Assembly: GCA_963843575.1 (NCBI GenBank)
Contig: CAWJKZ010000020.1
Location: 1 to 64,000, forward strand
DNA length: 64,000 nucleotides
From: an uncultured Acidobacteriota bacterium
GTDB lineage: Bacteria; Acidobacteriota; UBA6911
Direction of reading: 5' to 3'
In this document: positions 27,394 to 49,525 of the stretch, piece after piece
Layout: the number at the start of each line of letters is the position of its first letter
Position numbering within the stretch: the stretch's first letter is position 1
Notes under the pieces: generated by a model
The model's input: only the letters and a program-made list of their open reading frames with translations
Told to the model about the DNA's origin: nothing
The model's database searches: none
Program-made: the position numbers and the translations under genes

Positions 27394-29214
27394 CTACGGT
27401 ATGTCAAGAGCGTGTTCCCGGATCTCCGCGACCGGAGGCACTGAGCGGCTCATCTGCGAATTCTGGCTAACCAGGAAGAACGGCGTGCGGAACAGTATCA
27501 GCAGGTCCCTCCAGAACGACCACCTCCCGATATACTCGAGGTCAGACTGAACACGCTGCTCCATCGGGGTGTCACCGCGCCAACCCCGAACCTGGGCGAG
27601 GCCGGTAATCCCTCCGCGAACCTGGGTCCGGCGTTTGAAATCCGGGCAGGTCTCCACGAACACACTGTGGAACTCAGGCCGCTCGGGGCGCGGACCGACA
27701 AGGCTCATGTCGCCCACCAGCACGTTCCAGAGCTGGGGAATTTCATCGATGCCGTACCTGCGGAGGGTGGCCCCGACGGTGGTGCAGCGAGGGTCATTGT
27801 CGACGGCCCAGATCGCACCTTTCCCCCGCTCCGCGTCGCTGGTCATGGTGCGAAGTTTCAGCATCACGAATTCCCGTCCATGCAGTCCCACCCTGGTCTG
27901 CCGGAAAAAGCCCGGTCCGGGCGTCTGCCGACGTATGAGGACAGCCATGAGGAGCAAAGGCAGCCCGAGGACCAGCAACCCGCACAGCGAGACCAGCACA
28001 TCCAGGCCGCGCTTGGCGCTACCGGTAATCCCACCCAACGAAGGATGCGCCCGGTCGAACGATCCAGCGGCGTTCGCCCGCAATCCTGGAGCGACGGCTC
28101 GCCTCCGGGGATGAAGTCGGCCGCCGTCGCACCTGTGCCTGACGGCTTCCAGGAGGGTGCGTCGAAAGGTCTCTCGTGAAAACCGCAGCGCGTTTTGTCG
28201 GAGTCTCTCCGGCACAAACCTGGTCTGCTCCAGCAGACGGATGCCTTCGATGAGGCTGGCTGCCGTCTGGCGGCAGAAGAGTATCCCGGTCTCGCCGTCG
28301 GTGGTCGATTCGAGCGCCCCTCCCGCCGCATATGCCACCGCCGCTCTCCCACAGGCCTGCGCCTCGAGCGCAACCAGGCCGAAGTCCTCGCGCGCGGTAA
28401 CCAGCACCGCGCGGCAGCCTTGATACAGCGCTCGGAGCTCCTCGTTCGTCACGAACCCGCGAAACTGGATGTTGCCCGCGGCCTTGGCCCTGAGCTTGTG
28501 CAGGTCGGGTCCCGCTCCGGCAATCACCAGGGGGTAGCCGAGACGGTTGAATGCTTCCACGGCGATATCGAGGCGCTTGTAGGGAACCAGTGCGGACACG
28601 ACGAGGTAGAAACTCCCGGCGCGCTCTTCGACGGAGGGGCTGAAGAAGTCCGTGTCGACGGGGGGATAAATGATTTCTGCGTCTCGTCCGTAATACTTGA
28701 GAATCCTGCCCTGGACATGCCTGGAATCGGCGATGAAGTGGTCTACCGCGCGCGCGGTTTCGCAATCCCAGCGCCTCAAGGGAGTGGTCAGCGTCCGCAA
28801 AGCCGTCCTCTTGATCCCAAGCGGATCGGCGTAGTGGAAATAGTCTCGCCGCATGTCCCAGATGTAGCGCATGGGGGTCAGGCAATAGCAGATGTGCGGC
28901 CGCTCGAGGGGCTTCCGGACCCCCTTGGCCACGGCATGACTGATGCTCAGGACCAGGTCGAAACCCCGGAGATCGAATCTCGAGATCGCCAAGGGAAAGA
29001 GCGGAAGGAGGTGACGGTAGTGCCGCCGCGCACCCGGGATCCGGTCCAGAAAGGAGGTGTGGATCGACATCGATTCTATGCGCCGGCTCACCGAACCGGG
29101 CTCATGGAATAGCGTGAAGAGCGAAGCGTCGGGAAACAGTATGCACAGGTCCTCCAGGACGCGCTCTCCGCCGCGCATTCCCGTGAGCCAGTCGTGCACC
29201 AGGGCCACTTTCAT
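27394..29214 (-). CDS. GT4 (WbaZ-like) glycosyltransferase fused to a monotopic polyprenyl phosphoglycosyltransferase
   Basis: N-terminal VHDWLTGMRGGERV and EDFGLVALE (EX7E). C-terminal KRGLD, LKLRTM and DEIPQLWNVLVGDMSLVGPRPE. Confidence 0.92.
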   Translation of the reverse strand: MKVALVHDWLTGMRGGERVLEDLCILFPDASLFTLFHEPGSVSRRIESMSIHTSFLDRIPGARRHYRHLLPLFPLAISRFDLRGFDLVLSISHAVAKGVRKPLERPHICYCLTPMRYIWDMRRDYFHYADPLGIKRTALRTLTTPLRRWDCETARAVDHFIADSRHVQGRILKYYGRDAEIIYPPVDTDFFSPSVEERAGSFYLVVSALVPYKRLDIAVEAFNRLGYPLVIAGAGPDLHKLRAKAAGNIQFRGFVTNEELRALYQGCRAVLVTAREDFGLVALEAQACGRAAVAYAAGGALESTTDGETGILFCRQTAASLIEGIRLLEQTRFVPERLRQNALRFSRETFRRTLLEAVRHRCDGGRLHPRRRAVAPGLRANAAGSFDRAHPSLGGITGSAKRGLDVLVSLCGLLVLGLPLLLMAVLIRRQTPGPGFFRQTRVGLHGREFVMLKLRTMTSDAERGKGAIWAVDNDPRCTTVGATLRRYGIDEIPQLWNVLVGDMSLVGPRPERPEFHSVFVETCPDFKRRTQVRGGITGLAQVRGWRGDTPMEQRVQSDLEYIGRWSFWRDLLILFRTPFFLVSQNSQMSRSVPPVAEIREHALDIP

Positions 29215-29365
29215 AGGGCATACTCTTCGAATGAATTCCGGCGTGACGATGTCATGCCGGCAACTCCGGCCGTTGAATCATGCGTGTGCCCGAGCCACGC
29301 GATCCGCGGACGCTTTCCAATCCCTCGGCGTCACGACGATCATGGGAGTGACCTCGTCCATTCCA

Positions 29366-30385
29366 CTATCCCCTTCCCTCGCACGGCACTTCCCCGTCGC
29401 GGACCTCGGCAAGGTGAAGCGAGCATACGCACCGCCTGCAGACCGGGTTCGTGGCGACGTCCAGACTGCGACGGAACGCCAGTCCTTCAGGGCTGTTCAG
29501 GGCAGCACGGAGAGACTGCCGCTTCGTATTGCCGATGCCGGGGTGAAAGAAACAGGGGCGGACGGTGCCATCGGATTCGACGACCGCCGACACCCAGGGG
29601 GCGTTGCATGGGGGGGAGATAGGAGAGACCAGACCCAGGTGTGCGCGAAAGTGAACGACGATGCGCCGCAGCTTTTCCGGTGTCTCGAGAACGAATCCAC
29701 GATACTCCGGCAGGGCCGCAATCATGCCTTCGATTTCCGCCTCGAGCGAGTCCACCTCGTCCTGGGTCAGCGCCACCTGCGCCTGCCGCGCGGCGGGCCA
29801 ACCCGCGGGGCGGTTGAAAGCCCTCGAGGTAAGGTCTGCGGCGAGGAACGAGATGGAACGCAAACCCAGATCCATGGCGCAATGGACCGTCTCGCGAAGA
29901 ACACCGTGGTTGGCACGCTGCACGGTTGTGCGCGCGGCGATCGGGAACCCGGCCCGCTTCGCGTGCAGGGCGCGGATTCCTCCGGACAGCGAGTCGAACG
30001 CGCCGCGCACCCGGCGGATCCGGTCGTGCGCTTCCGGCGGCCCGTCCAGTGAGACGATCACGTCGTCCATGCTGCGGAGAACGCTCTCCGCATTAAGGGC
30101 CAGAAGCAGCCCGGTGGTCAGCATCGTGGTGCGGATCCCGCGCTCCCGCAGGAAATCGCCGAGGCGGAAGAGATCGGAGTGCATCAGCGGCTCGCCGCCC
30201 GAAAAAACCACCCGGCGCACGCCCAGGGCGGTGATGTCGTCCGCATGGGCTTGCAGGTCTGCGAACGTGATCTCCTCGCCCGCCTGGAGCTTCCAGATGT
30301 CGCACATCACGCATCGGCAGTTGCACCGGCTGTGCGGTTCCAGGATGAGGATCGGCAGGGTTTCGATCCGGTGACTGTCGTTCAT
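29366..30385 (-). CDS. Radical SAM protein with SPASM/twitch domain
   Basis: CNCRCVMC, SGGEPL and SLDG. C-terminal CNAPW...DGTVRPC...CRRCVC. Confidence 0.92.
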   Translation of the reverse strand: MNDSHRIETLPILILEPHSRCNCRCVMCDIWKLQAGEEITFADLQAHADDITALGVRRVVFSGGEPLMHSDLFRLGDFLRERGIRTTMLTTGLLLALNAESVLRSMDDVIVSLDGPPEAHDRIRRVRGAFDSLSGGIRALHAKRAGFPIAARTTVQRANHGVLRETVHCAMDLGLRSISFLAADLTSRAFNRPAGWPAARQAQVALTQDEVDSLEAEIEGMIAALPEYRGFVLETPEKLRRIVVHFRAHLGLVSPISPPCNAPWVSAVVESDGTVRPCFFHPGIGNTKRQSLRAALNSPEGLAFRRSLDVATNPVCRRCVCSLHLAEVRDGEVPCEGRG

Positions 30386-31620
30386 GCCGTCCTCAACATC
30401 CTCCGGTGTGCGAGAACCACGGGCCCCAGAGTCGGTTCGACCGGCTGGAATATCCGCGATATATCAAGGGCGACAAAAACCTGGTGCCCCTCCCTGCTTC
30501 CCACGGCCAGGGGCTGGAGATCCCGAACGGCGGCGAAGGGCAGCCGTTGCTTCACTCGGGGCGAGGTCAGCATGACTTCACCCCCGACAAACACCATTTC
30601 CATCGCTCCCGTCGAGAGCCCAAGGAGCGCCTCGATCGGTGTCTGGCCCGAATCCTCGACCACCAACAGGTCCGCGACACCCCCTTCGGACAACTCCCCT
30701 TCTCCCTGCCGGAGCCTCAAGACGCGGGCGGCTTCACGAGTAACCATTCCGAACAGCCGCGTGTCGGACACGCGCCTCACCTCGCGGGCAAGCCGCATTT
30801 CCTCCAGAAGATCACCCGCACCGCTGAGCGCCGAATCGGTGCCGAGTGCGACCGGGATGCCGCTCTCCAGGGCAGCCCGGGAAAGGGTCCGGCCCAGAAT
30901 GAAAATGTTGGAACTCGGGCACCAGACGAGTGAGCCGCCTCTTGCCCGGACAAGATCGAGCCCCCGGCGGTCGAGGGCAACCGCATGAACGAGCACCGTC
31001 CGATGGTCCAGGGCCCCCAGGGCGTCGAGGCGCTGGATTTCTTCTCTCCCGCGACGATCCACGGCCTCGCCAAGATGCAGAATGAATGGCCAGTCTTTCG
31101 GGGTCCGCCAAAAGCGCTCGCGCACATCCGGGCTGAAATCCAGCGAGTGGGCCCAACCGAAACGTTTGGGAACACGGATCGGGAAGTGCCGGGAGAAGAT
31201 CCGCGGGTTGAAAGGATTGTGGTGGCAGACCGTTGTGACTCCGCTGAGGAGGTTCTTGAGTGCACCCCAGCGTAGGCGGCACTCGAGCGGCACTCCGAGT
31301 TGCTCGCGCACGGGAGACTGATCTGGATGATAAATGTCCAGGGCCCACGCCCGCGCACTGGGGTACGGCCCGTTGCCCAGGCGCGGGAACAGATTGAACT
31401 CCAGGTGGTCATGGGCGTTGACGAGGCCGGGCAAAATGAGGGAACCGCGCACGTCCAGGCAGGCCCCACCCGGCGGAACGGACAAAGACGGGCGCATGCC
31501 AGCGATCCGGCCGGAACGTATTTCGATATCCAGACGCTGCGATTCGAAGGGACCGCGGGAGACGCGCGCCCCGGCCAGGAGCCACGAATCCGCCCGACTC
31601 GCCTGCACTGCCTTTCCCAT
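30382..31620 (-). CDS. Amidohydrolase (MTA/SAH-deaminase-like metal site)
   Basis: PGLVNAHDH, HLGE, VHAV, WCPSSN and LGTDS. Confidence 0.9.
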   Translation of the reverse strand: MGKAVQASRADSWLLAGARVSRGPFESQRLDIEIRSGRIAGMRPSLSVPPGGACLDVRGSLILPGLVNAHDHLEFNLFPRLGNGPYPSARAWALDIYHPDQSPVREQLGVPLECRLRWGALKNLLSGVTTVCHHNPFNPRIFSRHFPIRVPKRFGWAHSLDFSPDVRERFWRTPKDWPFILHLGEAVDRRGREEIQRLDALGALDHRTVLVHAVALDRRGLDLVRARGGSLVWCPSSNIFILGRTLSRAALESGIPVALGTDSALSGAGDLLEEMRLAREVRRVSDTRLFGMVTREAARVLRLRQGEGELSEGGVADLLVVEDSGQTPIEALLGLSTGAMEMVFVGGEVMLTSPRVKQRLPFAAVRDLQPLAVGSREGHQVFVALDISRIFQPVEPTLGPVVLAHRRMLRTA

Positions 31621-31624
31621 GCGC

Positions 31625-32323
31625 CTACCTGCGCCCCCACTCCACCGCAAGGACGGCTGGAACCGCCGTCACCTCGCTTATCCACGAACCTTTCCCGGCT
31701 GCCCGCATCGCGGACTTCTCCGGTTCGCCAAACCTGGGCTCGACAATTCTCCTCAGTTGGAGCCCGGCGCTGCGGCCGGCTTCCAGAAGCTGCCCGCGGC
31801 TGTAGCCATGGCTCTCGATCTCGAACACGTTCGCACCGAAGCGGAATGTCCGCCGCCACCCGCGCGAGAGGGCGCAAGGATGGAGGTCAGTGACCAGGAC
31901 GGTGCCCGTGCGCCGGACCACCCGGGCCAACTCCACGATCAAAGGCTCGATGCAGGGCATGTACCCCAGGCAGAAGGAGCAGAGGATCAGGTCCGCGGCT
32001 TCGTCGGCCAGTGGAAGAAACAGGGCATCCGCCTGGGCCACTGAGCCTGCCAGACGAGGCTTGCGCGCGGCTTTGCGGAGCATCTCGAGACTGATGTCGA
32101 CACCGACGGCCCTGGCCCCCCGCCCGGCGGCATACGCCGTCCACCGGCCGGTGCCACAGGCCACATCCAGGAACGTCTTCCCGGCCATCCGTTCCAGCTT
32201 TCCTGCCAGTGTGCGAAATTCCAGGGAGAGCAACGGATTCGGGTCCGTGTCATAGCTGGGCGACCACAGCCGATATCCATCGGCCGGCGATACGCGGATG
32301 AAGTCTGTCTTGGAGCTGGTCAC
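31625..32323 (-). CDS. Class I SAM-dependent methyltransferase (BioC-like N-terminus)
   Basis: GYRLWSPSYD..PNPL and LDVACGTGR. GTG start overlaps the upstream stop (GTGA). Confidence 0.9.
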   Translation of the reverse strand: MTSSKTDFIRVSPADGYRLWSPSYDTDPNPLLSLEFRTLAGKLERMAGKTFLDVACGTGRWTAYAAGRGARAVGVDISLEMLRKAARKPRLAGSVAQADALFLPLADEAADLILCSFCLGYMPCIEPLIVELARVVRRTGTVLVTDLHPCALSRGWRRTFRFGANVFEIESHGYSRGQLLEAGRSAGLQLRRIVEPRFGEPEKSAMRAAGKGSWISEVTAVPAVLAVEWGRR

Positions 32324-33780
32324 AGGCTTTCCACCGTGGGTTTTCTCAGCTCGACCGTCCTCTGCGCCCAGCGCAACTCCGCAGGCGCAGCGTAGAGGCC
32401 TACCTGGTACCGCCAAATGCTCAGCGACTGCAGCAGGACGCGTCCCCAGCCCGGGAGTCGCGTGTCCTGGACCGTTGGCCAGCGCGAGTTCACCACCAGC
32501 TCGAAGTTGTCGATACGCCGCCTGATGCGGACCGGCAGCCACGGCAGGTTCGGGTCTTTGCGGACCGTAAAATCGTACCAGCGCGGGGACGCCCATTCTT
32601 CCGGCGTGGCGGGGAACTGGATCTTCCCGTCGACCTTGCCGTACATCCCATCACGCTGTGGCGTTGGAATGTAGTGCTGGACGATGATCTCCGCCTCGGG
32701 ATTGATGGCCTTCAGGCGGCGGATGAAGCGAATGCACTCGCGCACGTCTCGCTCCGGGTCCTGCGGGTTGCCCAAAACGAACGAAAACTCGGGAACTATG
32801 CCGAACTGGCGGATTCTTTCGGCGAGGGCGAGCGTCTGCTCGGTTTTGAGACCCTTGTTCATCTGCGCGAGGACCCAGTCGGAGCCTGATTCGGCCCCGA
32901 AGAAAATCATGGTCGCGCCGGCTGCCTTGAGCGCGTGCAGTGTAGCATCGCTGTATCCGAGTACGGTGTCGATCCTCCCCTCGCACCACCAGCGCAGACC
33001 AAGGGAAGCGAGGCGATCCGCCAGCTCCCGTGTGTGATCCTCGCGCAGAAAGAAATTGTTGTCGTAGAACTGGACTGCATTCACCCCGTAACGTTCCCGG
33101 AGCATCTGCAGGATGGCGGCGGTACGTTCCGGGCTTTCCATCTTTTCGCTATGAAAGACCGGCACGACGCCGCAGAAATTGCAGCGGAATGGACATCCGA
33201 TGCTCGCGTGGTGCGCCGCCGTCCGTGAACCGAGGAAGGTGGGCAGGACATACTTCGAGGCGTCGACCCTGTGGTAGGGAAGCCAGGGAAAATCGTTGGG
33301 CGAGCGAAGCGGGCGCTCGGGATTGTGGACATGCCGTCCGGAGCCGTCCTTGTAAGACAGACCGCGGATCGACGCGAGGTCCACCTGGCCCCGCAGGGCC
33401 GCCATCAATTCCGAAAACGTGTCCTCGCCCTGTCCCCTGACGGCGTAATCCACGTAATCCGCATTCAGGGCGGCATCGGGATACAACGAGGGGAAGTAAC
33501 CTCCCCAGACGATGGGCACCGACGGGAACTGGCGGCGGAAGGAACGGCACAGCGGGATGGCTGCAACCATCTGAGGTCCGGGCATCACGGAAACAGCCAA
33601 CACCTCCGCGGGCCTGGCGTCTTGGAGTCTCGACAGCGTGCCACCGGGGTCCGTGTCGGTATTGCCGTCGACGATCTCATAGCTTTCCTTCCCTTCGATG
33701 GCGGCAGCTATCGCGAGGATGGAAAGGGGAAAGCGGCGGCTGCGCGCGCTTGTGGCGCGCGGATGCAGGAAAAGGATCAT
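32320..33780 (-). CDS. B12-binding radical SAM protein (5th in operon)
   Basis: FPLSILAIAA, WGGYFPS, RGQGE, CPFRCNFC, YDNNF and GAESGS. ATGA overlap at the start. Confidence 0.93.
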   Translation of the reverse strand: MILFLHPRATSARSRRFPLSILAIAAAIEGKESYEIVDGNTDTDPGGTLSRLQDARPAEVLAVSVMPGPQMVAAIPLCRSFRRQFPSVPIVWGGYFPSLYPDAALNADYVDYAVRGQGEDTFSELMAALRGQVDLASIRGLSYKDGSGRHVHNPERPLRSPNDFPWLPYHRVDASKYVLPTFLGSRTAAHHASIGCPFRCNFCGVVPVFHSEKMESPERTAAILQMLRERYGVNAVQFYDNNFFLREDHTRELADRLASLGLRWWCEGRIDTVLGYSDATLHALKAAGATMIFFGAESGSDWVLAQMNKGLKTEQTLALAERIRQFGIVPEFSFVLGNPQDPERDVRECIRFIRRLKAINPEAEIIVQHYIPTPQRDGMYGKVDGKIQFPATPEEWASPRWYDFTVRKDPNLPWLPVRIRRRIDNFELVVNSRWPTVQDTRLPGWGRVLLQSLSIWRYQVGLYAAPAELRWAQRTVELRKPTVESL

Positions 33781-34745
33781 GCTTCCCAGCTCCCGACAAG
33801 GATGTGGAAACGCGAGGGGGGGCGTTTTCGTTGCAGGCGCGCCTTCCAGGGGCGTAGATGCCAGCTGAAGCCGTACCAGGGTCGATACACTCTCCAGGAC
33901 AGGCCCAGCCGGACGGCCAACTCGACGAGCTGTGTCCCCCACAAGAACTCGAGGCTCCGCAGGCTGTCGGAGCGAAACCCGTACTTCGCTTCGTAGAAAC
34001 GGTGCCGCTCCTCCTTCATCCTTTCTCCGTGCGCGTGCTTCCGGTAGATCGGCGAATCGAGGACAACCACGCGGCCGTCCGGCTTCAGGCAGCGTTTCGC
34101 CTCGGCGAGGGTCTCTACGTAGTCGGCCGAATAGTGCAGGGAGGCGTTGAAAATGGCGAGGTCGAACTGGCCGTCTTCAAACGGCAGGTTGTCGTATTCC
34201 GCGCGCACCAGCCTCAACGGCCCCCCGAGAGCGGCCTCATAGTGATGCGAGGCACCGAGCCCGTCCCTCGCATCGGCAAAAATATCCACGGCCACCGGCC
34301 GGTGCCCCCGCAGGGCGAGCCGATACGAGAGCCATCCGGTTCCGGCGCCAAGGTCCAGGATGCGCAGCGTGTCCCCGTGCTCCCAGGTTGGCAGCAAGTG
34401 CCGTTCAAAATACCTGTAGGTCCTGCCGCGCATTGCCCACTGGTCCACGTTCCTGCCGGTCAGATCGCTGAACGGAAGGGCCAGATAGCATCGAGGGTCC
34501 CCGGACCCCCTCCCCTCGGCATGTCGAATGGTCGAATACTCGCCGACAAAACGCGAGAAATGGCGGACCCGGTCAACCGGCAGCGCGTGCAGGATGCCGT
34601 CTTTGGTCTCCAGAACGAAGCCGCACCGGCCGCAGCGCGGTGTTTCGAACAGGAGCCCGACAGCCGTGCCACAAGCCGGGCATCGGAGCCGCAGGCATGC
34701 ATCCGCGCCTCGCCGAACTGCCGGGACCGTTGCGGTTATTGGCAT
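33777..34745 (-). CDS. Class I SAM-dependent methyltransferase with N-terminal Zn-ribbon
   Basis: CPAC...CGRC, LDLGAGTGW, FDLAIFNASLHY and LKPDG. Confidence 0.9.
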   Translation of the reverse strand: MPITATVPAVRRGADACLRLRCPACGTAVGLLFETPRCGRCGFVLETKDGILHALPVDRVRHFSRFVGEYSTIRHAEGRGSGDPRCYLALPFSDLTGRNVDQWAMRGRTYRYFERHLLPTWEHGDTLRILDLGAGTGWLSYRLALRGHRPVAVDIFADARDGLGASHHYEAALGGPLRLVRAEYDNLPFEDGQFDLAIFNASLHYSADYVETLAEAKRCLKPDGRVVVLDSPIYRKHAHGERMKEERHRFYEAKYGFRSDSLRSLEFLWGTQLVELAVRLGLSWRVYRPWYGFSWHLRPWKARLQRKRPPSRFHILVGSWEA

Positions 34746-35578
34746 CCTGTCCTCTCGAAGACCAGCATCCGGTGATCCCCGGATCCGCGGAAAACAGGCC
34801 ATGAGCCGATGCGGTCGTCCAGCCGCGTCAATCCGGCAACGCAATGCCGCCACACGCGTGCGTGCCGCTCCAGATACGAAGGGGGGACGAGGACGGCGAT
34901 CCCGCGGTCGGAGACTACTCTGAAATGGCCGTCAAACGCCGAGACCAGTTCAGGGACGGAAGGATAAAAGACCCGGAGGCGGCTTCCCGGTTCGAGCGAG
35001 GACTCGATCCCGCGCACGCCCGCCTTCAGGCGCCGAAACGCCTTCCCTGGATTCATGCGGGCGAGATGCCACACCGTCTCCCAGAGACAGAACCGACCCA
35101 TGAAGCACAGCGCCACCTTCCCTCCCGGTCTGACCAGGCGCCCCAGATTGGAGGCAGCCGGGTGAAGGTCTTTCACGCAGTTGATGGCGCCGAAGTTCGA
35201 AATGGCGCCGTCGAACGGTCCCTTGTCCCGTATGTCCGCCAACTCCTCGATGGCCCGGAGCTCGAATGTCACCCGGTGTGAAAGCCCTTCCCGTTTCACC
35301 CTTTCCAGGGCAATGCTCAACATCCGGGGCGAGATGTCCGTCGCGTGCACCCGGACGCCGGCAGCCGCGAGCCAGGTTGCGTCCGCACCCGTGCCGCAGC
35401 CGAGCTCGAGTATCCGATCTCCCCTGCCAAAGAGGGCCCCGAGGGTACGCCTGACCTGCAGTCTCTGCAGCCTGCCGACGACGCCGCAGGTCCACGAGGC
35501 GTCGTACCCGGGGGCGAGGTGGTCGAATGCACGGGCAACCTGGGAGTCCCGATCTGACGTCGCCACCGAAGCCCTCAT
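34736..35578 (-). CDS. Class I SAM-dependent methyltransferase
   Basis: AFDHLAPGYD, LELGCGTG, FDGAISNFG and VRPGG. Confidence 0.9.
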   Translation of the reverse strand: MRASVATSDRDSQVARAFDHLAPGYDASWTCGVVGRLQRLQVRRTLGALFGRGDRILELGCGTGADATWLAAAGVRVHATDISPRMLSIALERVKREGLSHRVTFELRAIEELADIRDKGPFDGAISNFGAINCVKDLHPAASNLGRLVRPGGKVALCFMGRFCLWETVWHLARMNPGKAFRRLKAGVRGIESSLEPGSRLRVFYPSVPELVSAFDGHFRVVSDRGIAVLVPPSYLERHARVWRHCVAGLTRLDDRIGSWPVFRGSGDHRMLVFERTGCQ

Positions 35579-38390: not shown

Positions 38391-38391
38391 G

Positions 38392-41661: not shown

Positions 41662-43269
41662 TTGGAAATTGCCAAACGACTTCGACGCTCCCGTGATTCG
41701 CTGACCCTGGATCACCTTGTCGTCGCCGCCGTCGTGTTCGGCGTACACGGCACCCTGATGTACCTGTATCCGATCATCTACGGCGGGGACACCGTCATAC
41801 GCCTCGTCGCCTTTCCCCAGATCCTGTACGGGCATCAGCTGCCGCTTCTTCAAGTCCTGATCTATTGCGCCCTCCGCTGTTTCTACGGGGCCAAAAGCAT
41901 CTTCATCCTGATGGCTGTGATTTCCGCCGCGTCGGCCGCAGGAATCTACATGCTCGCCCGCGAACTGACCCTGGATCGCCGCGCCGGCCGACTCGCCGCG
42001 CTTCTATACGCAAGCCACCCTTTCATCCTCTACTACTCGCGCGTGCCCTACCAGGAACCGCTCCTTTTCGCTGGAATGGTCTGGGGCTTCTACTTCCTTT
42101 TCCGGCCTCCGTCGGCGCGGGACCTTCTCTTCTCCAGCCTGCTCATTGGGCTCGCCTGTTTCTCGCGCTACGAGGGGTGGATCGCCGCCCTGATTGCGGC
42201 CGGTTTCTATTTCTGGAGGCGTTCCAGGGCGGAAGGCCGGTTCCGGCTCGAGCCGGCGATCAAGGCTCTCCTCTATTTCGGCTGGGCGCCCGCCCTGTGG
42301 GTCGGATGGAACGAGGGCCTGAGCCCTGCCGGCACTTTCGTGCTCGATCTCCAGGTAAGCTGGGGCAGGCTCTATCGATCGTACTTTGTCGCAAAATCGG
42401 CCCTGTGGTGGACCGAGTCCGCCGTCGTCCTGATGGCGATAATGGGTTTTGTCCATTCCTGGCGCAATGACGCCATGCGCAAGGATCCACGCCTGCATGC
42501 CCTGTCGGCACTGCTCCTGCTCCATTTGGGCGCACTGGTCTTTTCGGGGCACGGGATCGATCCGGATCCCGTGCGCATCGTGACCGAGCGTGAGGCGTTC
42601 GTGCCGATCGGATTGCTGGTGCTGTATGCCGGGATCGGAGGCCGGTTCCTGATCCAGGAACTAACGGACGTGAGCCCGCTTGGTCGTGCCTACCGCCTTG
42701 CTGTGGCATCGGCGCTGCTTGCGGTCTGCGTCGGTTACAGCCTGCACAGGGGACTCAACTGCATCGCGGCCGCAAACGCGGACGCCGAGTTGAAAACGGA
42801 CTACGAGGTCGCCCGGTTCCTCGCAGCCAGGGAGGGAGCCGGCCTGGTCCTCGCCGCCCCCCTCCCCGCCGACGCCATCCGGGGCTATCTGAGCAGCGCC
42901 GAAAAGTGGAGCGGCGTTAACGGGAAGAGAAACGCCGAACGATTGTTGAGCCAGGTGGAAACTACCCCGCTGGACTATCAGCGCATCGTCGCGTATTCCT
43001 GGATCGGCAAGAACAGGCTCTTCTCCGCAGATCGGATCCCCGGGTTTGACGGAACTGCAATCGACGAGTTTTTGAGCGCAAAACGGATCGATCACATTGT
43101 GCTTTTTTCCGATTTCGTTCCCGTCAAGCCTTACGAAAAAATCATCGTCGACCGCTGTGCCGCGCAGGCGCGGCCGGAGTTTCAGGCACACAACGGAAAC
43201 AAATCCGTGTCCGTGTACGCGGTGCGTCGTCAAAACCCGGAACCGCTTTCGAAGGGGAGGACGGATTGA
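41662..43269 (+). CDS. GT-C fold membrane glycosyltransferase (ArnT/PMT-like)
   Basis: About 11 TM, early-loop YGGD, HPFILYYSRVPYQEPL, GLACFSRYEGW, and a soluble C-terminal domain. Confidence 0.75.
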   Translation: MEIAKRLRRSRDSLTLDHLVVAAVVFGVHGTLMYLYPIIYGGDTVIRLVAFPQILYGHQLPLLQVLIYCALRCFYGAKSIFILMAVISAASAAGIYMLARELTLDRRAGRLAALLYASHPFILYYSRVPYQEPLLFAGMVWGFYFLFRPPSARDLLFSSLLIGLACFSRYEGWIAALIAAGFYFWRRSRAEGRFRLEPAIKALLYFGWAPALWVGWNEGLSPAGTFVLDLQVSWGRLYRSYFVAKSALWWTESAVVLMAIMGFVHSWRNDAMRKDPRLHALSALLLLHLGALVFSGHGIDPDPVRIVTEREAFVPIGLLVLYAGIGGRFLIQELTDVSPLGRAYRLAVASALLAVCVGYSLHRGLNCIAAANADAELKTDYEVARFLAAREGAGLVLAAPLPADAIRGYLSSAEKWSGVNGKRNAERLLSQVETTPLDYQRIVAYSWIGKNRLFSADRIPGFDGTAIDEFLSAKRIDHIVLFSDFVPVKPYEKIIVDRCAAQARPEFQAHNGNKSVSVYAVRRQNPEPLSKGRTD

Positions 43270-44261
43270 AGGCTGCACGAGACCCATTGGGCCGACGCGT
43301 GCGTCGGGATTTTGTCGCCGAGTACGCCCCCCTGGGAACCAGGTTCCGCTTCGAAACCAACAGCCCAGCAATTCTCGACGCCTGCGAGGCTGCGTTTGGG
43401 CGTTACGGTTCCCCCACGTCGATTCCCCATTCTCCCCGGTTTTCAGTGCGCCTCCTGGTGGATCCCGGATTCACCGAGAGCCCTCCCTGGCCCGCCGCGG
43501 TCGTTCGGGGGCAGGATGGCCTGCTTTACGTCTCGGTCGGAAGAGAAAACACGGCGGTGGCGGATCTCGGCCGGCGCCGCGCGATGGGCTTCGTGGCTCC
43601 GTCGATGGCCGCAGACACTTCGGTCCTGAGACGCACGTTCCTGGAGTGCCTCGTTTTCACGATGGCAACGCACGGCGCGGGCGCTACCCATACCTATGTG
43701 CACGCCTCGGCCGTCGCTTGCGGAGATATGGGATTGATCTTCACCGGGCCCCCGGAGGCGGGCAAGAGCACGATGGCTTACGCTCTGGCGCGCAGCGGAT
43801 TCAACATCGTGACCGACGACGTCCTCTACATCGCCGACGGGGGGGGCGGTCTCACGGCATGGGGCAAACCCTGGCGTCTGCGCTTCCTACCGGACTGCGT
43901 GCGCTTCTTCCCCGAACTGAACGGTGCCGGCCTCCTCTCCGCACAGGAACAGGGCGTGGCAGAAGTCGAGCTGGACACCCTGCTGCCCGGCCGGGCCCAG
44001 ACCCGTTGCCAACCACGGGGCCTGTTCTTCCTGGACCGGGCTTCATCTTCGACCACCTGTGAGGTTCTGGACCCGGAAGATGCGGTAGAACTCCTGATGC
44101 GCGACCTGATCTGCGACACGCCACAGACCATGGGACGGCACCGCCGGAACTGGGCCCGGTTGGCGAAGCAGGGAGCTTACAAACTCCACTACGGCGCGAA
44201 CCTGGATGCCGCGGTGGATCTCCTCAGGCGCTTCGTCCATGCGGACTACAGGGTCACATGA
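43266..44261 (+). CDS. HPr kinase-related P-loop kinase
   Basis: VHASAV, Walker A GPPEAGKST and VTDD. TTGA overlap with the upstream gene. Confidence 0.85.
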   Translation: MKAARDPLGRRVRRDFVAEYAPLGTRFRFETNSPAILDACEAAFGRYGSPTSIPHSPRFSVRLLVDPGFTESPPWPAAVVRGQDGLLYVSVGRENTAVADLGRRRAMGFVAPSMAADTSVLRRTFLECLVFTMATHGAGATHTYVHASAVACGDMGLIFTGPPEAGKSTMAYALARSGFNIVTDDVLYIADGGGGLTAWGKPWRLRFLPDCVRFFPELNGAGLLSAQEQGVAEVELDTLLPGRAQTRCQPRGLFFLDRASSSTTCEVLDPEDAVELLMRDLICDTPQTMGRHRRNWARLAKQGAYKLHYGANLDAAVDLLRRFVHADYRVT

Positions 44262-45445
44262 AGGAAACCCGGCATTCCAGCGTCGATGAGGTTCTGCTGC
44301 AGAGCCTGCGCACGCCGGCACGGCCCGATGCCCGACTCGACTTCCCGCAATGGGAACGACTCTGGCGGACATCGCGGGACCACTGCCTCTCCCCCTACCT
44401 GCACAGGCAGTGGACGGATTCCGGATTCATCGCCACCCTCCCGCCCGCAATCGCGGAGCGGTTCGCCAAGGCCAGGGCAGACAATGCAGAACGGAACTGC
44501 AGTCTGCTGCAGGTCCTCGACGAGCTTCGCACGGCGCTGGAGAGCGAGAACATCCCGGTCCTCATCTCCAAAGGTCTGCCGGTGGCACACACCTACTACG
44601 GGGACCTCGGCTTGCGGGTGCTTTACGACCTTGATCTGCTCATCAAGCCCCAGGACCGGGAGCGCGCTTTCGAGGTTGCCCAGGAACTGGGCTACGTCCC
44701 TTTTTTCGCGGGAGACCGGAGGCATCAACTCCTTTGGCGTCCGCGCGCCTATGCCTGGGACGCCGAGCACGTATTCGACCCGGATCGTCCCTGCCTGGTT
44801 GAGTTGCACACGCGCCCCTGGCAGCGCCGCTGGCACGGCTTCGGGTTGGAGTGCCAGCTGCAGCTCTGGGAAGGAGCACGAACCCGGGAGATCGCCGGCG
44901 TTGCGCTGCGGGTTCCCCGGGAAGAGAAGCTCCTGATACATCTCGCCGTCCATTACGCCTGCAACGTGATCGAGGCCGACGCGCGGCTCATGCACCTCTT
45001 GGACCTGTGCCTCCTGCTGCGCCAGAGCGCAACCGCCCTGGACTGGGGACTGATCCTGCACGAATCGGCGAGGAGCCGGGCGCAGCCCTTCTGCTTCGTT
45101 GCGCTGGATCTGGCCGCCCGGTTGGGCCAATGGGACTATCCGGACAGCGTGCGCAGCGTGCTGAACTCGGCGACCCCCCGCGCTGTCGCCGACTGGGTTG
45201 AGCGCCGGGGCGTGGAAGATGTTCTGGCGATGAATATCCACCGCCGGGAAAAGTCGCTGATCTACTTCCTGCACTGGAACATGGCGGCGGGAGTGACGGA
45301 AACGGCTTCCGTGTTGTTCGAGGCCGTGCGCTCACCGTGGCGCGAGGGACATGGGATCGGGCGCTGGAAATCTCTGGCGTCGAGGATGGTCCAGCGGTTC
45401 GACGAAATCGCGCGCGCCTCGCATGCGTCACGGGGTGCCCACTGA
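44258..45445 (+). CDS. Nucleotidyltransferase family protein (NTP_transf_5-like)
   Basis: SKGLPVAHTYYGDLGLRVLYDLDLLI, VELH and HLAVH. ATGA overlap. Confidence 0.85.
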   Translation: MKETRHSSVDEVLLQSLRTPARPDARLDFPQWERLWRTSRDHCLSPYLHRQWTDSGFIATLPPAIAERFAKARADNAERNCSLLQVLDELRTALESENIPVLISKGLPVAHTYYGDLGLRVLYDLDLLIKPQDRERAFEVAQELGYVPFFAGDRRHQLLWRPRAYAWDAEHVFDPDRPCLVELHTRPWQRRWHGFGLECQLQLWEGARTREIAGVALRVPREEKLLIHLAVHYACNVIEADARLMHLLDLCLLLRQSATALDWGLILHESARSRAQPFCFVALDLAARLGQWDYPDSVRSVLNSATPRAVADWVERRGVEDVLAMNIHRREKSLIYFLHWNMAAGVTETASVLFEAVRSPWREGHGIGRWKSLASRMVQRFDEIARASHASRGAH

Positions 45446-47229
45446 TGAGCTCTGCGTGGCTGCGCAGGTGTTGCGAGTTTCAACTGTTCGCCCTGGTGTT
45501 CGCTTTACCGTTCGAGTATTACATCGCCGGCCGCGAGCAATCGCTACTGACGAGTTTGAAGCTGCAGATCGTGGCGCTGCTGGCAACCTGGGCGTGCTTG
45601 AGGCTGGCCGAGTGGGCCGACCGCGGTGGCTCGCCAGCCCAGGCCCTTCGAGAACTATTCCCGGGCAGACTGGCGCTCCCGCTCGCGTTCTTCGTCCTGA
45701 TTGGTTTGCTCTCGGCGACGTTGGCGCCCGAATTCCGCGGCAATGCCCTCCGGTCCGGCATCAAGGCCGTGGCAGGCGCCTTGCTGGCTCTGGCCGTGGC
45801 CGATCTATGCCGCACCCCCCGGGCGCGTTGTTCTCCGATCCGTGGGGTCCTGCTCGCCCTCGCGCTGGCCGGCAGCTGCACGGCCCTCCTCGGACTTGGC
45901 GACCTCGCCGGGTTCCGGTTCTTCTCGCGCCTGGTGAATGTATTTCAGCCGAACAAGTACTTCCTCGGTGACCACCTGCGCTTTGTTTCGACGATGGAAT
46001 ACCCCAACACTGCCGGGAGCATCCTGCTCGTATCGATCTGCGCGACCCTGGCCCTGACCGTCTTCCCGAATCGGGTGGAAAATCATCCAGCATGGAAATA
46101 CGCGGCCTTGGTCATGCTGGGCACCCAGGGAGTCGCGCTGGCATTGACCTATTCGCGGGGAGCGTTGGGAGCCACCATCGTCGCGGTCGTGGTCGCAACG
46201 TGGTGCACGCGGAATCTGCCCTGGACCGGCCGGGGGAAGCTCGCCCTTGCCGGTTGTCTCGTGATCCTGCTGGGAGGAACAGCGTACCTGATTTCGGTCC
46301 GATACCAGTCCGCAGGCGACGTTTCACCCGCGGTGAAACGGATTGCGTACTACGGCCTCGAAGCCGGGAAGAGCATTGAGACGCTCGTCCCCGGCCAGTG
46401 CTATCGGCAAAGGATTGCGTTGCAGAACAAGTCGCCGAACGAGTGGCGATGCGGCGAGTACGGGATCGGCTATCGCTGGCATCGTGTCGACGGCAACCAG
46501 GGCTCCGCGCCCCAGGTGGGCGCCGAGTTTTCTCGCGACCTGCCTCCTGCAAGCACTGCGGAGGTGCCCGTCGCCTTGAACACCCCAGCCGACCCGGGTG
46601 AATACCTGCTGATCTGGTTTGTATTCCGCAATGCCGGGACACTCGAAGAACTCAAGGAATCCTATTCTCCGGCAATACTGTGTGTGATCGATCCCGCCCC
46701 GTCGGGAGCCGGCGCGCCGGCACCTTCCGAAACCGCCCGGCGTTACCTCGGCGCCATCAATGAAGAACGTCGAAGCCTGAACGGCACTCTCGTCCCCGGA
46801 CGCTGGGAACTCTGGTCCGCGGCATTGCGGATGTTCCGGGAGAGGCCGCTCCTCGGAATCGGGCCGGACAATTTTCGTCTCCTGAAGTGGAAGCACATGG
46901 AGGTGCCCAAAGGGGACGAGACGATTCTCGCAAACAGCATCTACCTGGAACTGCTGTCGGGCACAGGCATTCTTGGACTCGCATCGTTTCTCTGGCTCTT
47001 GTGGGCAGCGGGCCGCTGTGCGCTCGCCGAGATTCGCTCCGGCGGACCCTCGTCCGGTTTCGTGTCGGGTTACTTCGGGATCGCCTATCTCGCCGGATTG
47101 ATGTCGCACGGGTTTGTGGACTATTTCCTCAAGTTCACCCCGACCTTCCTGGTCTTCTGGCTTGTCTTGGGGTTGTTGTGCGCGCGCACCGGTGCGGCAA
47201 AAGAGGGTCATAGTGCGAATCGGCTTTGA
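45445..47229 (+). CDS. O-antigen ligase (WaaL/Wzy_C)-like membrane protein with inserted Ig-like domain
   Basis: YPNTAG, LTYSRGA, RWELWSAALRMFRERPLLGIG and YLELLSGTGILG, plus a beta-rich insert. TGATG coupling. Confidence 0.85.
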   Translation: MSSAWLRRCCEFQLFALVFALPFEYYIAGREQSLLTSLKLQIVALLATWACLRLAEWADRGGSPAQALRELFPGRLALPLAFFVLIGLLSATLAPEFRGNALRSGIKAVAGALLALAVADLCRTPRARCSPIRGVLLALALAGSCTALLGLGDLAGFRFFSRLVNVFQPNKYFLGDHLRFVSTMEYPNTAGSILLVSICATLALTVFPNRVENHPAWKYAALVMLGTQGVALALTYSRGALGATIVAVVVATWCTRNLPWTGRGKLALAGCLVILLGGTAYLISVRYQSAGDVSPAVKRIAYYGLEAGKSIETLVPGQCYRQRIALQNKSPNEWRCGEYGIGYRWHRVDGNQGSAPQVGAEFSRDLPPASTAEVPVALNTPADPGEYLLIWFVFRNAGTLEELKESYSPAILCVIDPAPSGAGAPAPSETARRYLGAINEERRSLNGTLVPGRWELWSAALRMFRERPLLGIGPDNFRLLKWKHMEVPKGDETILANSIYLELLSGTGILGLASFLWLLWAAGRCALAEIRSGGPSSGFVSGYFGIAYLAGLMSHGFVDYFLKFTPTFLVFWLVLGLLCARTGAAKEGHSANRL

Positions 47230-48367
47230 CGGCAGTTCGATCCGCCGCGGCGCTTCTGGTGTCGGACATTACGCCGCCTCTCTCCTGCACGCGCTGTGCC
47301 TGCAATATCCCCGGAGACAGATGCTATTCCTGTCGCACCTCGCATACTCGGGGCGCCCGCTCGCCAACCTCACCCCCACGCAAAAGCACTCGTTTCCGGT
47401 CAAGGAGATATGGATGCAGCTGTGGCTCCCGCACTTGCTGGCCCGGCACTCTCCCGACCTCTGTCACTTCACAAACAGCATAGCCCCGCTGCTTTTCCGC
47501 GGTGCGTACGTCGTTACACTCCACGATCTCAGCCTGGTGAAGCACCCGGAATGGCACCCGCCCTCCCGCAGGGCGTGGATGGCCAGGATCATCCGCCCGT
47601 CGATCGCGCGCGCGTCGGGAATTATCTGCGATTCCGAGGCGACCCGGAAGGACCTGCTCGAATGGCTGAGGGTGAGCGAATCGAAGGTCAGGGTAGTTCC
47701 CCTGGCCGCCAGAACGAGTGTCGCGCGCACGTGTTCCGAGGTCGAGAAGCAAACGGTCAGGCGCCGGTACGGCCTCCTCCGGCCATATTTCCTTTATGTG
47801 GGAAACATCGAGCCCAGGAAAAACCTGTGCCGGCTGCTGAAAGCGTTCCGTCTGGCAAATCCGCCGGGACTCGACCTGGTTCTCGCAGGCAGATTCGCCT
47901 GGCTGTGGCGCACGGTCCGGGATGAAGCGGACCATCCGCAGCACCGCGGCAAACTGCATTTCCTGGACTATGTGGCCGAGGAGGATCTTGCCGCCCTGTA
48001 TCAGTCGGCGGTTGCCTTCGTCTACCCCTCACTGATGGAAGGTTTCGGATTGCCTGTGCTCGAGGCCATGGCTTCGGGGGTCCCCGTGCTGGCATCGAAC
48101 GTCGAACCACTGGCGTCCCTTGTCGGCGAGGACGGGTGGCTGCTGCCGCCTGAAGACGTGGACGGATGGCGGCGTGCGGTATCAGAGGCCGCCGGGGACC
48201 GGGAAAAGCGCATGTACTTCGCGGCGGCAGGCAGAAGGAGGGCTGCTCAGTACTCCTGGGAGCGTGTCGCGCGAGAGACCATGTCCTGCTATGAGGACGC
48301 TCTCGCGTTGAAGTCCCCCGCGGGACGACCCGCCGTTCCGAGCACAACGGTGGGAAGGCCGCATTGA
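47213..48367 (+). CDS. GT4 glycosyltransferase (MtfB/WbpY-like)
   Basis: SGVGHY, TLHDL, VGNIEPRKNL and EGFGLPVLEAMA. Confidence 0.92.
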   Translation: MRIGFDGSSIRRGASGVGHYAASLLHALCLQYPRRQMLFLSHLAYSGRPLANLTPTQKHSFPVKEIWMQLWLPHLLARHSPDLCHFTNSIAPLLFRGAYVVTLHDLSLVKHPEWHPPSRRAWMARIIRPSIARASGIICDSEATRKDLLEWLRVSESKVRVVPLAARTSVARTCSEVEKQTVRRRYGLLRPYFLYVGNIEPRKNLCRLLKAFRLANPPGLDLVLAGRFAWLWRTVRDEADHPQHRGKLHFLDYVAEEDLAALYQSAVAFVYPSLMEGFGLPVLEAMASGVPVLASNVEPLASLVGEDGWLLPPEDVDGWRRAVSEAAGDREKRMYFAAAGRRRAAQYSWERVARETMSCYEDALALKSPAGRPAVPSTTVGRPH

Positions 48368-48508
48368 CGAGGACGGTAGCGGATACTAACATCCCTGTAG
48401 TCCGACTCCCTCCCTTTTTCCCACCGCGATCGGGTGACGACGACCAGCCCCAAGGCCCTCCCCGGTTGGTCTCTTTTCGCGTCGCAGGCAAAGAAAGCGC
48501 AGGAGGCT

Positions 48509-49525
48509 ATGGCAAAATCAGTCCTGATCACGGGCATCACGGGGCAGGACGGGTCCTTTCTTGCGGAGTTGTTGCTGGAAAAGGGCTACGACGTCCACGG
48601 GATCGTGCGCCGCGTGGCGCTCGAGGACCCCGAGCACCGCTTGTGGCGGATCCGGCACATACTCCCGGATCTCCGGCTGCATTCCGCCTCGCTCGAGAGC
48701 TTCGCCAGCATCTACCGGGTGATCAGACAGGTCCAGCCGGACGAATGCTACCACCTCGCCGCGCAGAGCTTCGTCACCTACTCGTTCGAGGATGCCTTTT
48801 CGACGCTCAACACCAACATCAACGGCACCCACTACGTGCTGGCGGCGATTCACGACCTCGTGCCGCGCTGCCGGTTCTATTTCGCGGGTTCGAGTGAAAT
48901 GTTCGGGCGCGTGACAGAGGTACCCCAAAACGAACAGTCCAGGTTCCATCCGCGTTCCGCGTACGGCATCTCCAAGGTTGCGGGTTTCGACCTGACCCGT
49001 AACTACCGCGAAGCCTACGGCCTGCATGCATCGAGCGGCATCCTGTACAATCACGAGTCGGCCCGCCGGGGATATGAGTTCGTCTCACGCAAAATCACCT
49101 ATCACGCCTGCCGCATCAGACTCGGGCTTGCCCATACCCTGCCGCTGGGCAATCTCGAAGCCAAGCGGGATTGGGGACACGCCCGGGATTACGTCAAGGC
49201 CATGTGGCTGATGCTCCAGCAGCCCGTCCCGGGCGACTACGTCATCGCCACGGGCGAGACCCACTCGGTGCGGGAATTGGCGGAGCACGCGTTCTCGTAC
49301 CTGGGGCTGGACTACAGAGACTACGTCCGCGTGGACCCCGAACTGGTGCGGCCGGCGGAGGTGGACATCCTGCAGGGAGATGCGTCCCGTGCGCATCAGG
49401 CCCTGGGGTGGCGCCGCCGGACGTCGTTCCGGGAACTGATCGAGGAAATGGTTGAGGAGGATCTCAAGCGAACGGGAACTCTGTTGACCGAGGCCCCTCC
49501 AACCGCAGTTCCGCAGACTTATTAG
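48509..49525 (+). CDS. gmd: GDP-mannose 4,6-dehydratase
   Basis: ITGITGQDGSFLAE, LAAQSFV, SSEMFG, YGISK, NHES and RDWGHARDYV. RBS AGGAGG. Confidence 0.96.
   Translation: MAKSVLITGITGQDGSFLAELLLEKGYDVHGIVRRVALEDPEHRLWRIRHILPDLRLHSASLESFASIYRVIRQVQPDECYHLAAQSFVTYSFEDAFSTLNTNINGTHYVLAAIHDLVPRCRFYFAGSSEMFGRVTEVPQNEQSRFHPRSAYGISKVAGFDLTRNYREAYGLHASSGILYNHESARRGYEFVSRKITYHACRIRLGLAHTLPLGNLEAKRDWGHARDYVKAMWLMLQQPVPGDYVIATGETHSVRELAEHAFSYLGLDYRDYVRVDPELVRPAEVDILQGDASRAHQALGWRRRTSFRELIEEMVEEDLKRTGTLLTEAPPTAVPQTY

Follow-up and report, generated by a model that had tools for sequence, protein, structure and literature searches.

What does a bacterium make with six radical S-adenosylmethionine (SAM) enzymes encoded almost end to end, and what have the genes for lipid-linked glycan assembly beside them to do with it? 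The question is raised by a stretch of an uncultured Acidobacteriota genome (6.68 Mb, 88% complete), positions 1 to 64,000 of its contig C20, called here the window. A leftward operon in it carries five radical SAM genes with B12-binding or B12-like domains, named rS1 to rS5 in operon order, together with three methyltransferases (MT1 to MT3), an amidohydrolase, a further radical SAM enzyme with a SPASM-type domain and a glycosyltransferase, and a divergent operon carries a kinase, a nucleotidyltransferase and further glycan genes. On balance these genes probably build a nucleotide-activated, radically modified unit and place it on a polyprenyl-pyrophosphate-linked surface glycan, be it a capsule or exopolysaccharide or a protein O-glycan. 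The constant partner of the cassette is the nucleotidyltransferase, which a first description made from the letters alone (the original prediction) had listed without giving it weight, and it is this enzyme that ties the cassette to glycans.

Conservation and distribution of the cassette

Two sets of related loci (cited by L numbers, and sampled genomes by G numbers, where needed) were gathered, the first by a scan of species genomes with rS4, which gave at least 566 relatives among 598 candidate stretches, and the second by a metagenome scan with a second-lineage rS3, which gave 574 relatives among 604 stretches, the best 80 being kept in each case. Nearly all records of the first 80 loci are titled Acidobacteriota, and contig ends shorten 17 of them. 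Presence was counted by tblastn or hidden Markov model searches, because gene calls scored by codons or amino acids had missed some genes in the related loci. Within 10 kb of rS4 (35575-36963, minus strand as for the whole leftward operon, 462 amino acids), rS3 (36948-38390, 480 amino acids) is found in all 80 loci, the class I methyltransferase MT1 (34736-35578, 280 amino acids) in 78, the SPASM enzyme (29366-30385, 339 amino acids, with a short SPASM/twitch-type C-terminal domain) in 75, rS5 (32320-33780, 486 amino acids) in 74, MT3 (31625-32323, 232 amino acids, class I) and rS2 (38392-39891, 499 amino acids) in 72 each, and rS1 (39939-41441, 500 amino acids) in 65. The class I methyltransferase MT2 (33777-34745, 322 amino acids, with an N-terminal CxxC...CxxC ribbon) occurs in 32 and the amidohydrolase (30382-31620, 412 amino acids) in 26, gene orders varying between loci; MT1 is also present in 23 of 28 evenly drawn loci. 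Since this gene set turns up again in every one of the 80 fetched loci, its clustering is far beyond chance.

Each radical SAM protein has a median identity of 54-63% to its own counterparts in 65-80 of the 80 related loci (63% for rS1, 62% for rS5), and the five are 26-41% identical to one another. A tree of 88 rows supports a single group for each of rS1, rS3, rS4 and rS5, and for rS2 once one mislabelled distant row is set aside; rS1 pairs with rS2 as its sister (41% identity), as rS3 does with rS4 (33% identity), and the second lineage has a further group, rS2b, the sixth. Two long rows of the tree, rS2_L110 and rS2b_L113, are distant enzymes that came in through best-hit labelling and were excluded as members. 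Grouping by orthologue in this way indicates that the five radical SAM enzymes are old and separately maintained, not recent duplicates, and no second copy of the cassette was found in the window's own genome.

At E <= 1e-100, 31 genomes from an even sample of 301 across the phylum have rS3, and they span 15 families; relatives of the second-lineage rS3 bear Chloroflexota names (Anaerolineae, Promineifilaceae, Herpetosiphonaceae, Sphaerobacter). A protein atlas adds Bacteroidota clusters for rS4, and for rS3 and rS4 alike the close relatives in metagenomes run into the thousands. The smallest cassettes hold a nucleotidyltransferase of a second type (NT2, below), rS3 and one or two methyltransferases, plus glycosyltransferase genes of families GT2 or GT4, and rS3 is the radical SAM enzyme remaining in them; L162 and L187 are examples, with NT2, rS3, MT1, MT2 and a phosphorylase. 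In the single-contig genome G060 (L099-L101, L242) rS4 with MT2, a split rS3, and NT2 with a flippase lie at three separate sites. The plasmid collection yielded five records, each at 27-30% identity, and none of them is an orthologue. No cultured carrier is named among the listed cluster members of 10 rS4 orthologues, an unrelated entry of 54 amino acids being disregarded, or among the top 120 matches of the relative searches; among sequencing runs no RNA run is listed, and one DNA run appears with a share of 0.05.

The nucleotidyltransferase as constant partner

The window's nucleotidyltransferase (44258-45445, plus strand as for the whole divergent operon, 395 amino acids) belongs to the Pfam family NTP_transf_5 and has invariant residues K105, G106, R120, D124 and D126. 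The corresponding profile matches 56 of the first 80 loci. NT2, the second type, occurs in 63 of the 80 metagenome loci, mostly directly upstream of rS3, and has an invariant G...DxD with weak matches to NTP_transf_2 and to the MNT antitoxin. A common origin of the two was considered and set aside, hhalign giving probabilities of 0.2% and 1.2% with no alignment beyond the DxD region, and they were treated as separate families. Both types together are seen in none of 188 loci. Among the 31 rS3-bearing genomes of the 301-genome sample, 28 hold one type (10 NTP_transf_5, 18 NT2) and none holds both, three of the profile training sequences coming from sampled genomes (G000, G006, G041); two of the remaining three have a weaker NTP_transf_5 beside the cassette. 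Either type is found in 12 of the 270 genomes without an rS3 match. NT2 accounts for five of these cases: in four it adjoins a split rS3, an rS4-like gene, MT1 or the amidohydrolase, and in G060, the fifth, a split rS3 lies at another site. A strong NTP_transf_5 match without rS3 is found in three genomes. Such mutual exclusion looks like the non-orthologous replacement of what may well be a required step.

NT2 is linked to glycans by its fusion behind a GT4 glycosyltransferase in L145, L240 and L244, the GT4 part being 32-37% identical to the window's own GT4 (47213-48367, 384 amino acids). Where NT2 stands apart from rS3 (L239-L244), flippase or WaaL/GT4 genes lie beside it in five of six loci. 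In two Pfam-scanned loci (L219, L229) NTP_transf_5 heads a Wza-(Wzi)-Wzz-Wzx-Wzy operon, and all five genomes whose cassette had seemed to stand alone have a strong NTP_transf_5 match at another place, in loci with GT4 or phosphoglycosyl transferase (PGT) genes.

A structural model of the window's enzyme (predicted local distance difference test, pLDDT, 88) has a fold of the ANT(2'')/FKRP type, scoring Z 11.6 against ANT(2'')-Ia (root mean square deviation, rmsd, 3.8 over 167 aligned residues), 11.6 against MenT1 and 10.9 against LnuA; FKRP comes lower than ANT(2'')-Ia and MenT1 at Z 7.2 (rmsd 4.4, 159 aligned). A Foldseek search with the model gave no match at E <= 0.001. A fold that this predicted model shares with ANT(2'')-Ia and FKRP shows no function. 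The HprK-related P-loop kinase encoded just before it (43266-44261, 331 amino acids) matches Hpr_kinase_C with 25.2 bits, below the cut-off of 33.3, and is present in 29 of the first 80 loci; it is confined to the locus sets of the NTP_transf_5 type, none of the 80 NT2-type metagenome loci having it. At L069:3945-4340 and in eight other loci the kinase gene is followed by a 131-amino-acid gene without a Pfam match which by eye resembles the N-terminal part of the kinase. In the window's own genome (G000) a PqqD gene at C25:204063-205309 (plus strand) is followed by a second NTP_transf_5 gene, matched in two pieces.

Glycan genes around the cassette

The original prediction had staked itself on homologous operons keeping company with glycosylation genes across genomes, and relatives do keep such genes beside the cassette, with their orders shuffled. 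With one set of 19 glycan queries and a range of 10 kb, full-length evenly drawn loci give a match in 15 of 24 cases (16 of 28 when short ones are counted), compared with 28 of 318 tiles of the window's own genome as background; this enrichment is somewhat inflated by the building of these queries and of both transferase profiles from cassette loci, and related loci are not independent samples. In the first set 39 of 63 full-length loci have a match, and among long metagenome loci 8 of 10. Pfam shows Wza or a glycosyltransferase in three of the nine evenly drawn loci without a query match.

Genome G001, of the same genus, keeps 16 of the genes in order; it has one WaaL-like gene and one GT-C gene more, and no Gmd is seen within the fetched 40 kb. 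In same-family genomes WaaL, GT4 and GT4-PGT genes, and often Gmd, GT-C, kinase and transferase genes, flank the operon in reshuffled orders. The original prediction's association with glycosylation genes stands, but the particular GT-C, WaaL-like and Gmd genes of the window are lineage-specific, tblastn finding none of them in 80 distant loci; there GT87 (21 of 80), flippase (16 of 80) and PMT_2 (11 of 80) genes take their place. In the metagenome set a flippase is found in 23 of 80 loci, a GT-C/WaaL protein in 19 and a nucleoside phosphorylase in 16. The original prediction's statement that no exporter is present therefore describes this window correctly but does not extend to related loci, given these flippases.

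Among the window's own glycan genes, the GT4-PGT fusion (27394-29214, minus strand, 606 amino acids), a type that primes polyprenyl phosphate, stays beside the cassette in same-family genomes. The GT-C enzyme (41662-43269, 535 amino acids) is a PMT_2-like membrane glycosyltransferase (E 2e-7) with copies 49-55% identical in L091, L094 and L096. The WaaL/Wzy_C-family protein (45445-47229, 594 amino acids; Wzy_C E 4e-11), a ligase or oligosaccharyltransferase, has an inserted Ig-like domain (E 0.005) and about seven hydrophobic segments. A Bac_transf match of 205 bits, two GT4 domains and a Wzy_C match of 43 bits supply the initiating PGT, the glycosyltransferases and the ligase or polymerase of a Wzx/Wzy-type glycan locus. 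Gmd (GDP-mannose 4,6-dehydratase; 48509-49525, 338 amino acids; TIGR01472 381 bits against a cut-off of 415) is an accessory outside the conserved core, found in two of 28 evenly drawn loci.

The radical SAM enzymes and their likely chemistry

None of rS1 to rS5 reaches the cut-off of an NCBIfam radical SAM family among those shown, and the named equivalogs BchE, HpnJ, HpnR, PhpK, ApyD, BzaD, AprD4, ArsL and TsrM were tested without any being matched at that level. BchE (at most 141.5 bits against 481) and HpnJ (at most 118.8 against 578) rank among the top rows, and PhpK (at most 117.2 against 600) and ArsL (at most 54 against 450) among the weak ones. The "BchE" labels which relatives carry in JGI are thus generic, the cut-offs lending no support to a label of bacteriochlorophyll cyclase. 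The original prediction of five B12-radical SAM enzymes is borne out at the level of the Pfam domain for rS1, rS2, rS4 and rS5, whose B12-binding domains score 52-66 bits, but rS3, with 26 bits, falls below the Pfam cut-off of 32.1 and has the consensus GSD where the other four have GG. With the weakest B12 domain of the five, rS3 may or may not use cobalamin. Each of the six radical SAM proteins has one CxxxCxxC motif. In rS1 and rS2 a cysteine lies among the last three residues, after a variable tail, in 52 of 58 and 67 of 71 orthologues, and this is seen in at most 4 of 103-182 sequences for rS3, rS4 and rS5.

The nearest solved sequence to rS3 is AprD4 (E 4e-29), with MgmA next, and that to the SPASM enzyme is BlsE (E 9e-14, core barrel only). 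AprD4 is a sugar dehydratase and BlsE acts on cytosylglucuronate, so the nearest solved sequences of both enzymes act on sugars, which speaks for a sugar-like unit. The rS3 model (pLDDT 89) ends in two helices without a further domain, and its fold scores against TsrM, MgmA, AprD4, OxsB, CysS and TokK are alike. C-methylases are scattered through the family, and its non-methylating members are indistinguishable from them by sequence (PMC12931638, section 12 part 1 and section 17). The window's own genome has 17 matches to the B12-binding domain and no CobS match; in an incomplete genome this suggests that the host probably imports B12. A flavin-reductase-like gene recurs beside the cassette (L001, L002, L031, L061, L076, L191, L193, L194) and could be an electron source for the radical SAM enzymes. 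A PqqD-domain gene at C15:215502-218603 (plus strand) of G000 is separated by about 1.6 kb from a further gene for a B12-domain radical SAM enzyme, possibly marking a RiPP locus (RiPP, ribosomally synthesised and post-translationally modified peptide).

The amidohydrolase is of the nucleobase or nucleoside deaminase type. Residues H80, H82, H192, E195, H222 and D272 (numbered from a start at 31650) are invariant in 40 sequences, so that the HxH, HxxE, H and D pattern known from nucleobase deaminases is retained, and the nearest solved chains are deaminase-type amidohydrolases. Among 16 relatives picked mostly for their length, nine are fused to a methyltransferase and one to the SPASM enzyme; many relatives have the amidohydrolase behind the methyltransferase, and in P0129, P0070 and relatives of about 650 amino acids the methyltransferase lies at either end, or the fusion is to the SPASM enzyme. 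The phosphorylase (16 loci) and the amidohydrolase (41 loci) co-occur in none of the 188 loci, a pattern that lineage alone could explain, and either enzyme could clear SAM by-products or process an intermediate.

A proposed pathway and points against it

We infer every substrate and reaction in the following course, from gene content, conservation, linkage, fusions and folds that were themselves observed. The kinase and the nucleotidyltransferase would add a phosphate and a nucleotidyl group to a small unit, derived from a sugar or a nucleoside; alternatively the transferase may pass the phosphate ester of the unit to the glycan, in the manner of FKRP or LicD. Soluble radical SAM enzymes and methyltransferases would tailor the unit stepwise, by C-methylation, deoxygenation or rearrangement, and O- or N-methylation. 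A minimal set would be rS3, one or two methyltransferases and the nucleotidyltransferase, to which rS1, rS2, rS4, rS5 and the SPASM enzyme would add steps. The deaminase, or the nucleoside phosphorylase in other lineages, may clear 5'-deoxyadenosine and S-adenosylhomocysteine or process an adenosine-type intermediate. The PGT would prime the lipid carrier, GT4 enzymes extend it and a flippase export it, and the WaaL-like or GT-C enzyme would transfer the product to its acceptor. Chloroflexota mostly lack lipopolysaccharide, and so the acceptor would not be lipopolysaccharide in general; a capsule or a protein glycan is likelier.

A more particular version, which we hold to be doubtful, is that the unit is made from SAM itself. 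A radical SAM enzyme would add the 5'-deoxyadenosyl radical to an acceptor; deamination of the adenine, or its removal by the phosphorylase, would follow, and the substituted ribose phosphate would be activated by the nucleotidyltransferase, methylated repeatedly by the B12 enzymes and joined to the capsule via a phosphodiester. If so, this would be a new class of surface polymer spread over around a tenth of Acidobacteriota and many Chloroflexota, its radical chemistry having until now been known from antibiotics and lipids alone.

Several observations weigh against a surface glycan unit as the product. No glycan-query match lies within 10 kb in 9 of 24 evenly drawn and 24 of 63 first-set full-length loci, several loci stand without glycan genes, and in L196, L197, L200, L203 and L210 the scanned proteins include neither Wza nor a glycosyltransferase by Pfam; to this comes the inflation of the enrichment given above. 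The glycan partners vary by lineage, and there is no flippase by Pfam among the window's 17 genes, the scope of that search within its own genome. The fold scores of rS3 against TsrM, MgmA, CysS and TokK, which have non-sugar substrates, nearly equal that against AprD4, and AprD4 and ArsL carry a B12-like domain without binding cobalamin (PMC12931638, section 17), so that having the domain is in itself no proof of cobalamin binding. The missing CobS belongs here also. Cupredoxin or cytochrome c genes beside 48 of the first 80 loci stand unexplained; elsewhere redox genes are found in 4 of 28 evenly drawn and none of the 80 metagenome loci. Cupredoxin and small cytochrome c genes lie in or beside a transferase/capsule operon in L219-L222, L226, L229, L062, L069, L070, L073 and L074, and other loci have a two-domain cytochrome c, a CarboxypepD_reg protein and a CxxCH-bearing porin-like protein after the SPASM gene.

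Alternative explanations

These same redox genes would make sense if the operon made a free small molecule or cofactor, for instance a methylated nucleoside, or else a metal- or redox-active compound that the cupredoxin and cytochrome c proteins use, with the glycan genes as co-regulated neighbours. The deaminase-type enzyme in the operon, with its fusions in relatives, would fit such a product, as would seven loci of one gene order (L063, L071, L072, L077-L080) whose operon has no glycan-query match. We nevertheless think it unlikely: in five of five such genomes tested the transferase is retained among glycan genes elsewhere, GT4-transferase fusions exist, the redox genes fade in the other two samples, and the recurring families annotated include no small-molecule exporter. 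A membrane lipid or a glycolipid head group might instead be the target, through methylation or cyclisation of branched glycerol dialkyl glycerol tetraethers or a ring contraction on a hopanoid sugar like that of HpnJ. The carriers are titled soil-type Acidobacteriota, which are a known source of these branched lipids (PMC10087280), and the B12-domain radical SAM enzymes GrsA/B and HpnJ act on lipids (PMC13459092); BchE and HpnJ are moreover top NCBIfam rows. Yet both stay far below their cut-offs, no lipid-synthesis family is among the recurring families annotated, and the cassette is present in only about 10% of the phylum. Lipid-chain chemistry needs, to our knowledge, no nucleotidyltransferase, flippase or WaaL, and this target is decidedly improbable.

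A kinase and a transferase which phospho-glycosylate serine, as PsmK and PsmN do, could work on a peptide or protein whose residues the radical SAM enzymes C-methylate. The HprK-like kinase does lie beside a nucleoside triphosphate (NTP) transferase with a catalytic DxD and with 4xje and 5cfs as structural neighbours, the entries named for PsmN in PMC6993621, and TsrM and MgmA are top fold matches of rS3. The original prediction found neither a RiPP recognition element (RRE) nor a protease, and this is borne out, with no PqqD/RRE match on the contig (four PqqD matches lie elsewhere in the genome) and no cyclase or protease among the 17 genes by Pfam. A search of 2,618 small intergenic open reading frames (ATG-started, 25-96 amino acids, from which divergent precursors can be missed) gave no candidate precursor in more than seven loci, the top groups being fragments of known neighbours. 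With rS3 ending in two helices and no further domain, and the kinase missing from the NT2-type loci, we put little faith in a peptide target. Heteroatom chemistry, in which a phosphonate, phosphinate or methylated metalloid of arsenosugar-like kind is made and attached to the glycan, is the most improbable of the readings weighed here. PhpK and ArsL appear among the weak NCBIfam rows, the cysteine conserved at the C-terminus of rS1 and rS2 is reminiscent of the ArsL family, in whose name a cysteine tail figures, and a methyltransferase, a radical SAM enzyme and a nucleoside phosphorylase make up what we take to be the arsenosugar route. The PhpK and ArsL scores are nonetheless a small part of their cut-offs, phosphoenolpyruvate (PEP) mutase is over its cut-off in none of five carriers and absent from the window, and no arsenic-resistance family is among the recurring families annotated. 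A PEP-mutase-like gene, unlinked, lies at C11:101755-102552 (plus strand) of G000 with 278 bits against a cut-off of 320, a level not seen in four other carriers, and PF14907 is mentioned once, beside a PEP mutase cluster, in passages of PMC8942020.

Gene inventory and neighbouring genes

All 17 open reading frames of the two operons have the place, order and strand first given for them and are free of internal stops, and each has the Pfam domain then named, that of the kinase below cut-off. The leftward operon holds five B12-binding plus Radical_SAM proteins, three class I methyltransferases, Amidohydro_1, Radical_SAM plus SPASM, and GT4 plus Bac_transf, and the divergent operon PMT_2, Hpr_kinase_C, NTP_transf_5, Wzy_C, GT4 and GDP_Man_Dehyd. 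Most junctions overlap or nearly touch, as had been noted, gaps being found between rS1 and rS2 (47 bp), before GT4-PGT (151 bp) and before Gmd (about 140 bp). Codon scoring and overlaps corrected the starts of rS5 (33780), the Zn-ribbon methyltransferase MT2 (34745), MT3 (32323), the amidohydrolase (31620) and the WaaL-like gene (45445); those of GT4 (47213) and Gmd (48509) were picked from the junction sequences, both frames being checked.

Directly downstream of GT4-PGT, at 24502-27087 (minus strand), lies a gene for an 861-amino-acid PD40/TPR protein with a CxxCH motif. On the other side a gene resembling a glycoside hydrolase family 2 (GH2) exo-beta-glucosaminidase (49679-52347, plus strand) is spread over three frames (49679-50239, 50019-50741, 50503-52347), with GH2 domains by Pfam in the latter two, and is a pseudogene or an assembly error. 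At 14679-15064 (plus strand) two overlapping reading frames share a DUF488-N3 domain, covering profile positions 1-61 and 65-118.

Implications and relation to known systems

Six radical SAM enzymes in one conserved pathway are rare, and the rS groups are orthologue groups that no curated family covers. If a surface glycan is indeed tailored, this would be an undescribed coat chemistry in abundant bacteria of soil, peat and sediment, with possible consequences for phage binding, biofilms, the demand for B12 in soil and the persistence of microbial carbon. The minimal version, with one radical SAM enzyme, one nucleotidyltransferase and one or two methyltransferases, is a small system for reconstitution that would give the NTP_transf_5 and NT2 families a function.

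The original prediction recognised no characterised pathway with this gene set, and this has held, no curated family being matched and no description being returned by a literature search whose coverage lay outside supplements and most subscription journals, where tables from sequence similarity networks or antiSMASH could mention it. With the class B radical SAM enzymes GenK, GenD1, MoeK5, Fom3, OxsB and HpnJ, which act on sugars and nucleotide-linked substrates and which a review counts among C-methylases or enzymes that form rings (PMC12931638, sections 12 part 1 and 17), and with the B12-independent AprD4, rS1 to rS5 share an N-terminal B12-binding-like domain and the CxxxCxxC barrel. Unlike these, they reach no named family cut-off, occur as five orthologue groups together and have the neighbours of a cell-surface glycan and not of an antibiotic or hopanoid pathway. 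Of the hallmarks of RiPP and lasso peptide loci, the HprK-type kinase and the DxD NTP transferase are present and RRE/PqqD, cyclase and protease are absent. In pseudomycoidin, a lasso peptide, the HprK kinase PsmK and PsmN, an uncharacterised NTP transferase modelled on ANT(2'') entries, are both needed for a hexose on phosphorylated serine (PMC6993621). The likeness to the window lies in an HprK-family kinase with an NTP transferase of ANT(2'')-like fold and catalytic DxD, the product there being a hexose on phosphate; the window has no lasso cyclase, RRE or precursor that could be found, and radical SAM enzymes with lipid-linked glycan genes instead. Phosphonoglycan loci are marked by PEP mutase, which no carrier examined has over cut-off.

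With loci for Wzx/Wzy-dependent capsule, exopolysaccharide and protein O-glycosylation the window shares the PGT, the GT4 enzymes, Wzy_C/WaaL and Gmd, and its relatives share in addition Wza, Wzi, Wzz, Wzx, Wzy and a NusG-family gene. The window differs from them in having no flippase or Wza and in its six-radical-SAM tailoring block, of which the literature search returned no description for such loci. Phosphocholine added by LicA, LicC and LicD and the O-methyl phosphoramidate of Campylobacter are nucleotide-activated decorations of surface glycans. These, together with the ribitol phosphate of FKRP, resemble the present system in having a kinase, an enzyme of nucleotidyltransferase fold, a hydrolase and methyltransferases beside a glycan locus, a likeness of fold (FKRP being the more distant neighbour above) and gene context and not of sequence membership. 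These pathways are not known to use a radical SAM enzyme. In its working the locus is like a pathway for nucleotide-activated glycan decoration, and it belongs to none that has been characterised.

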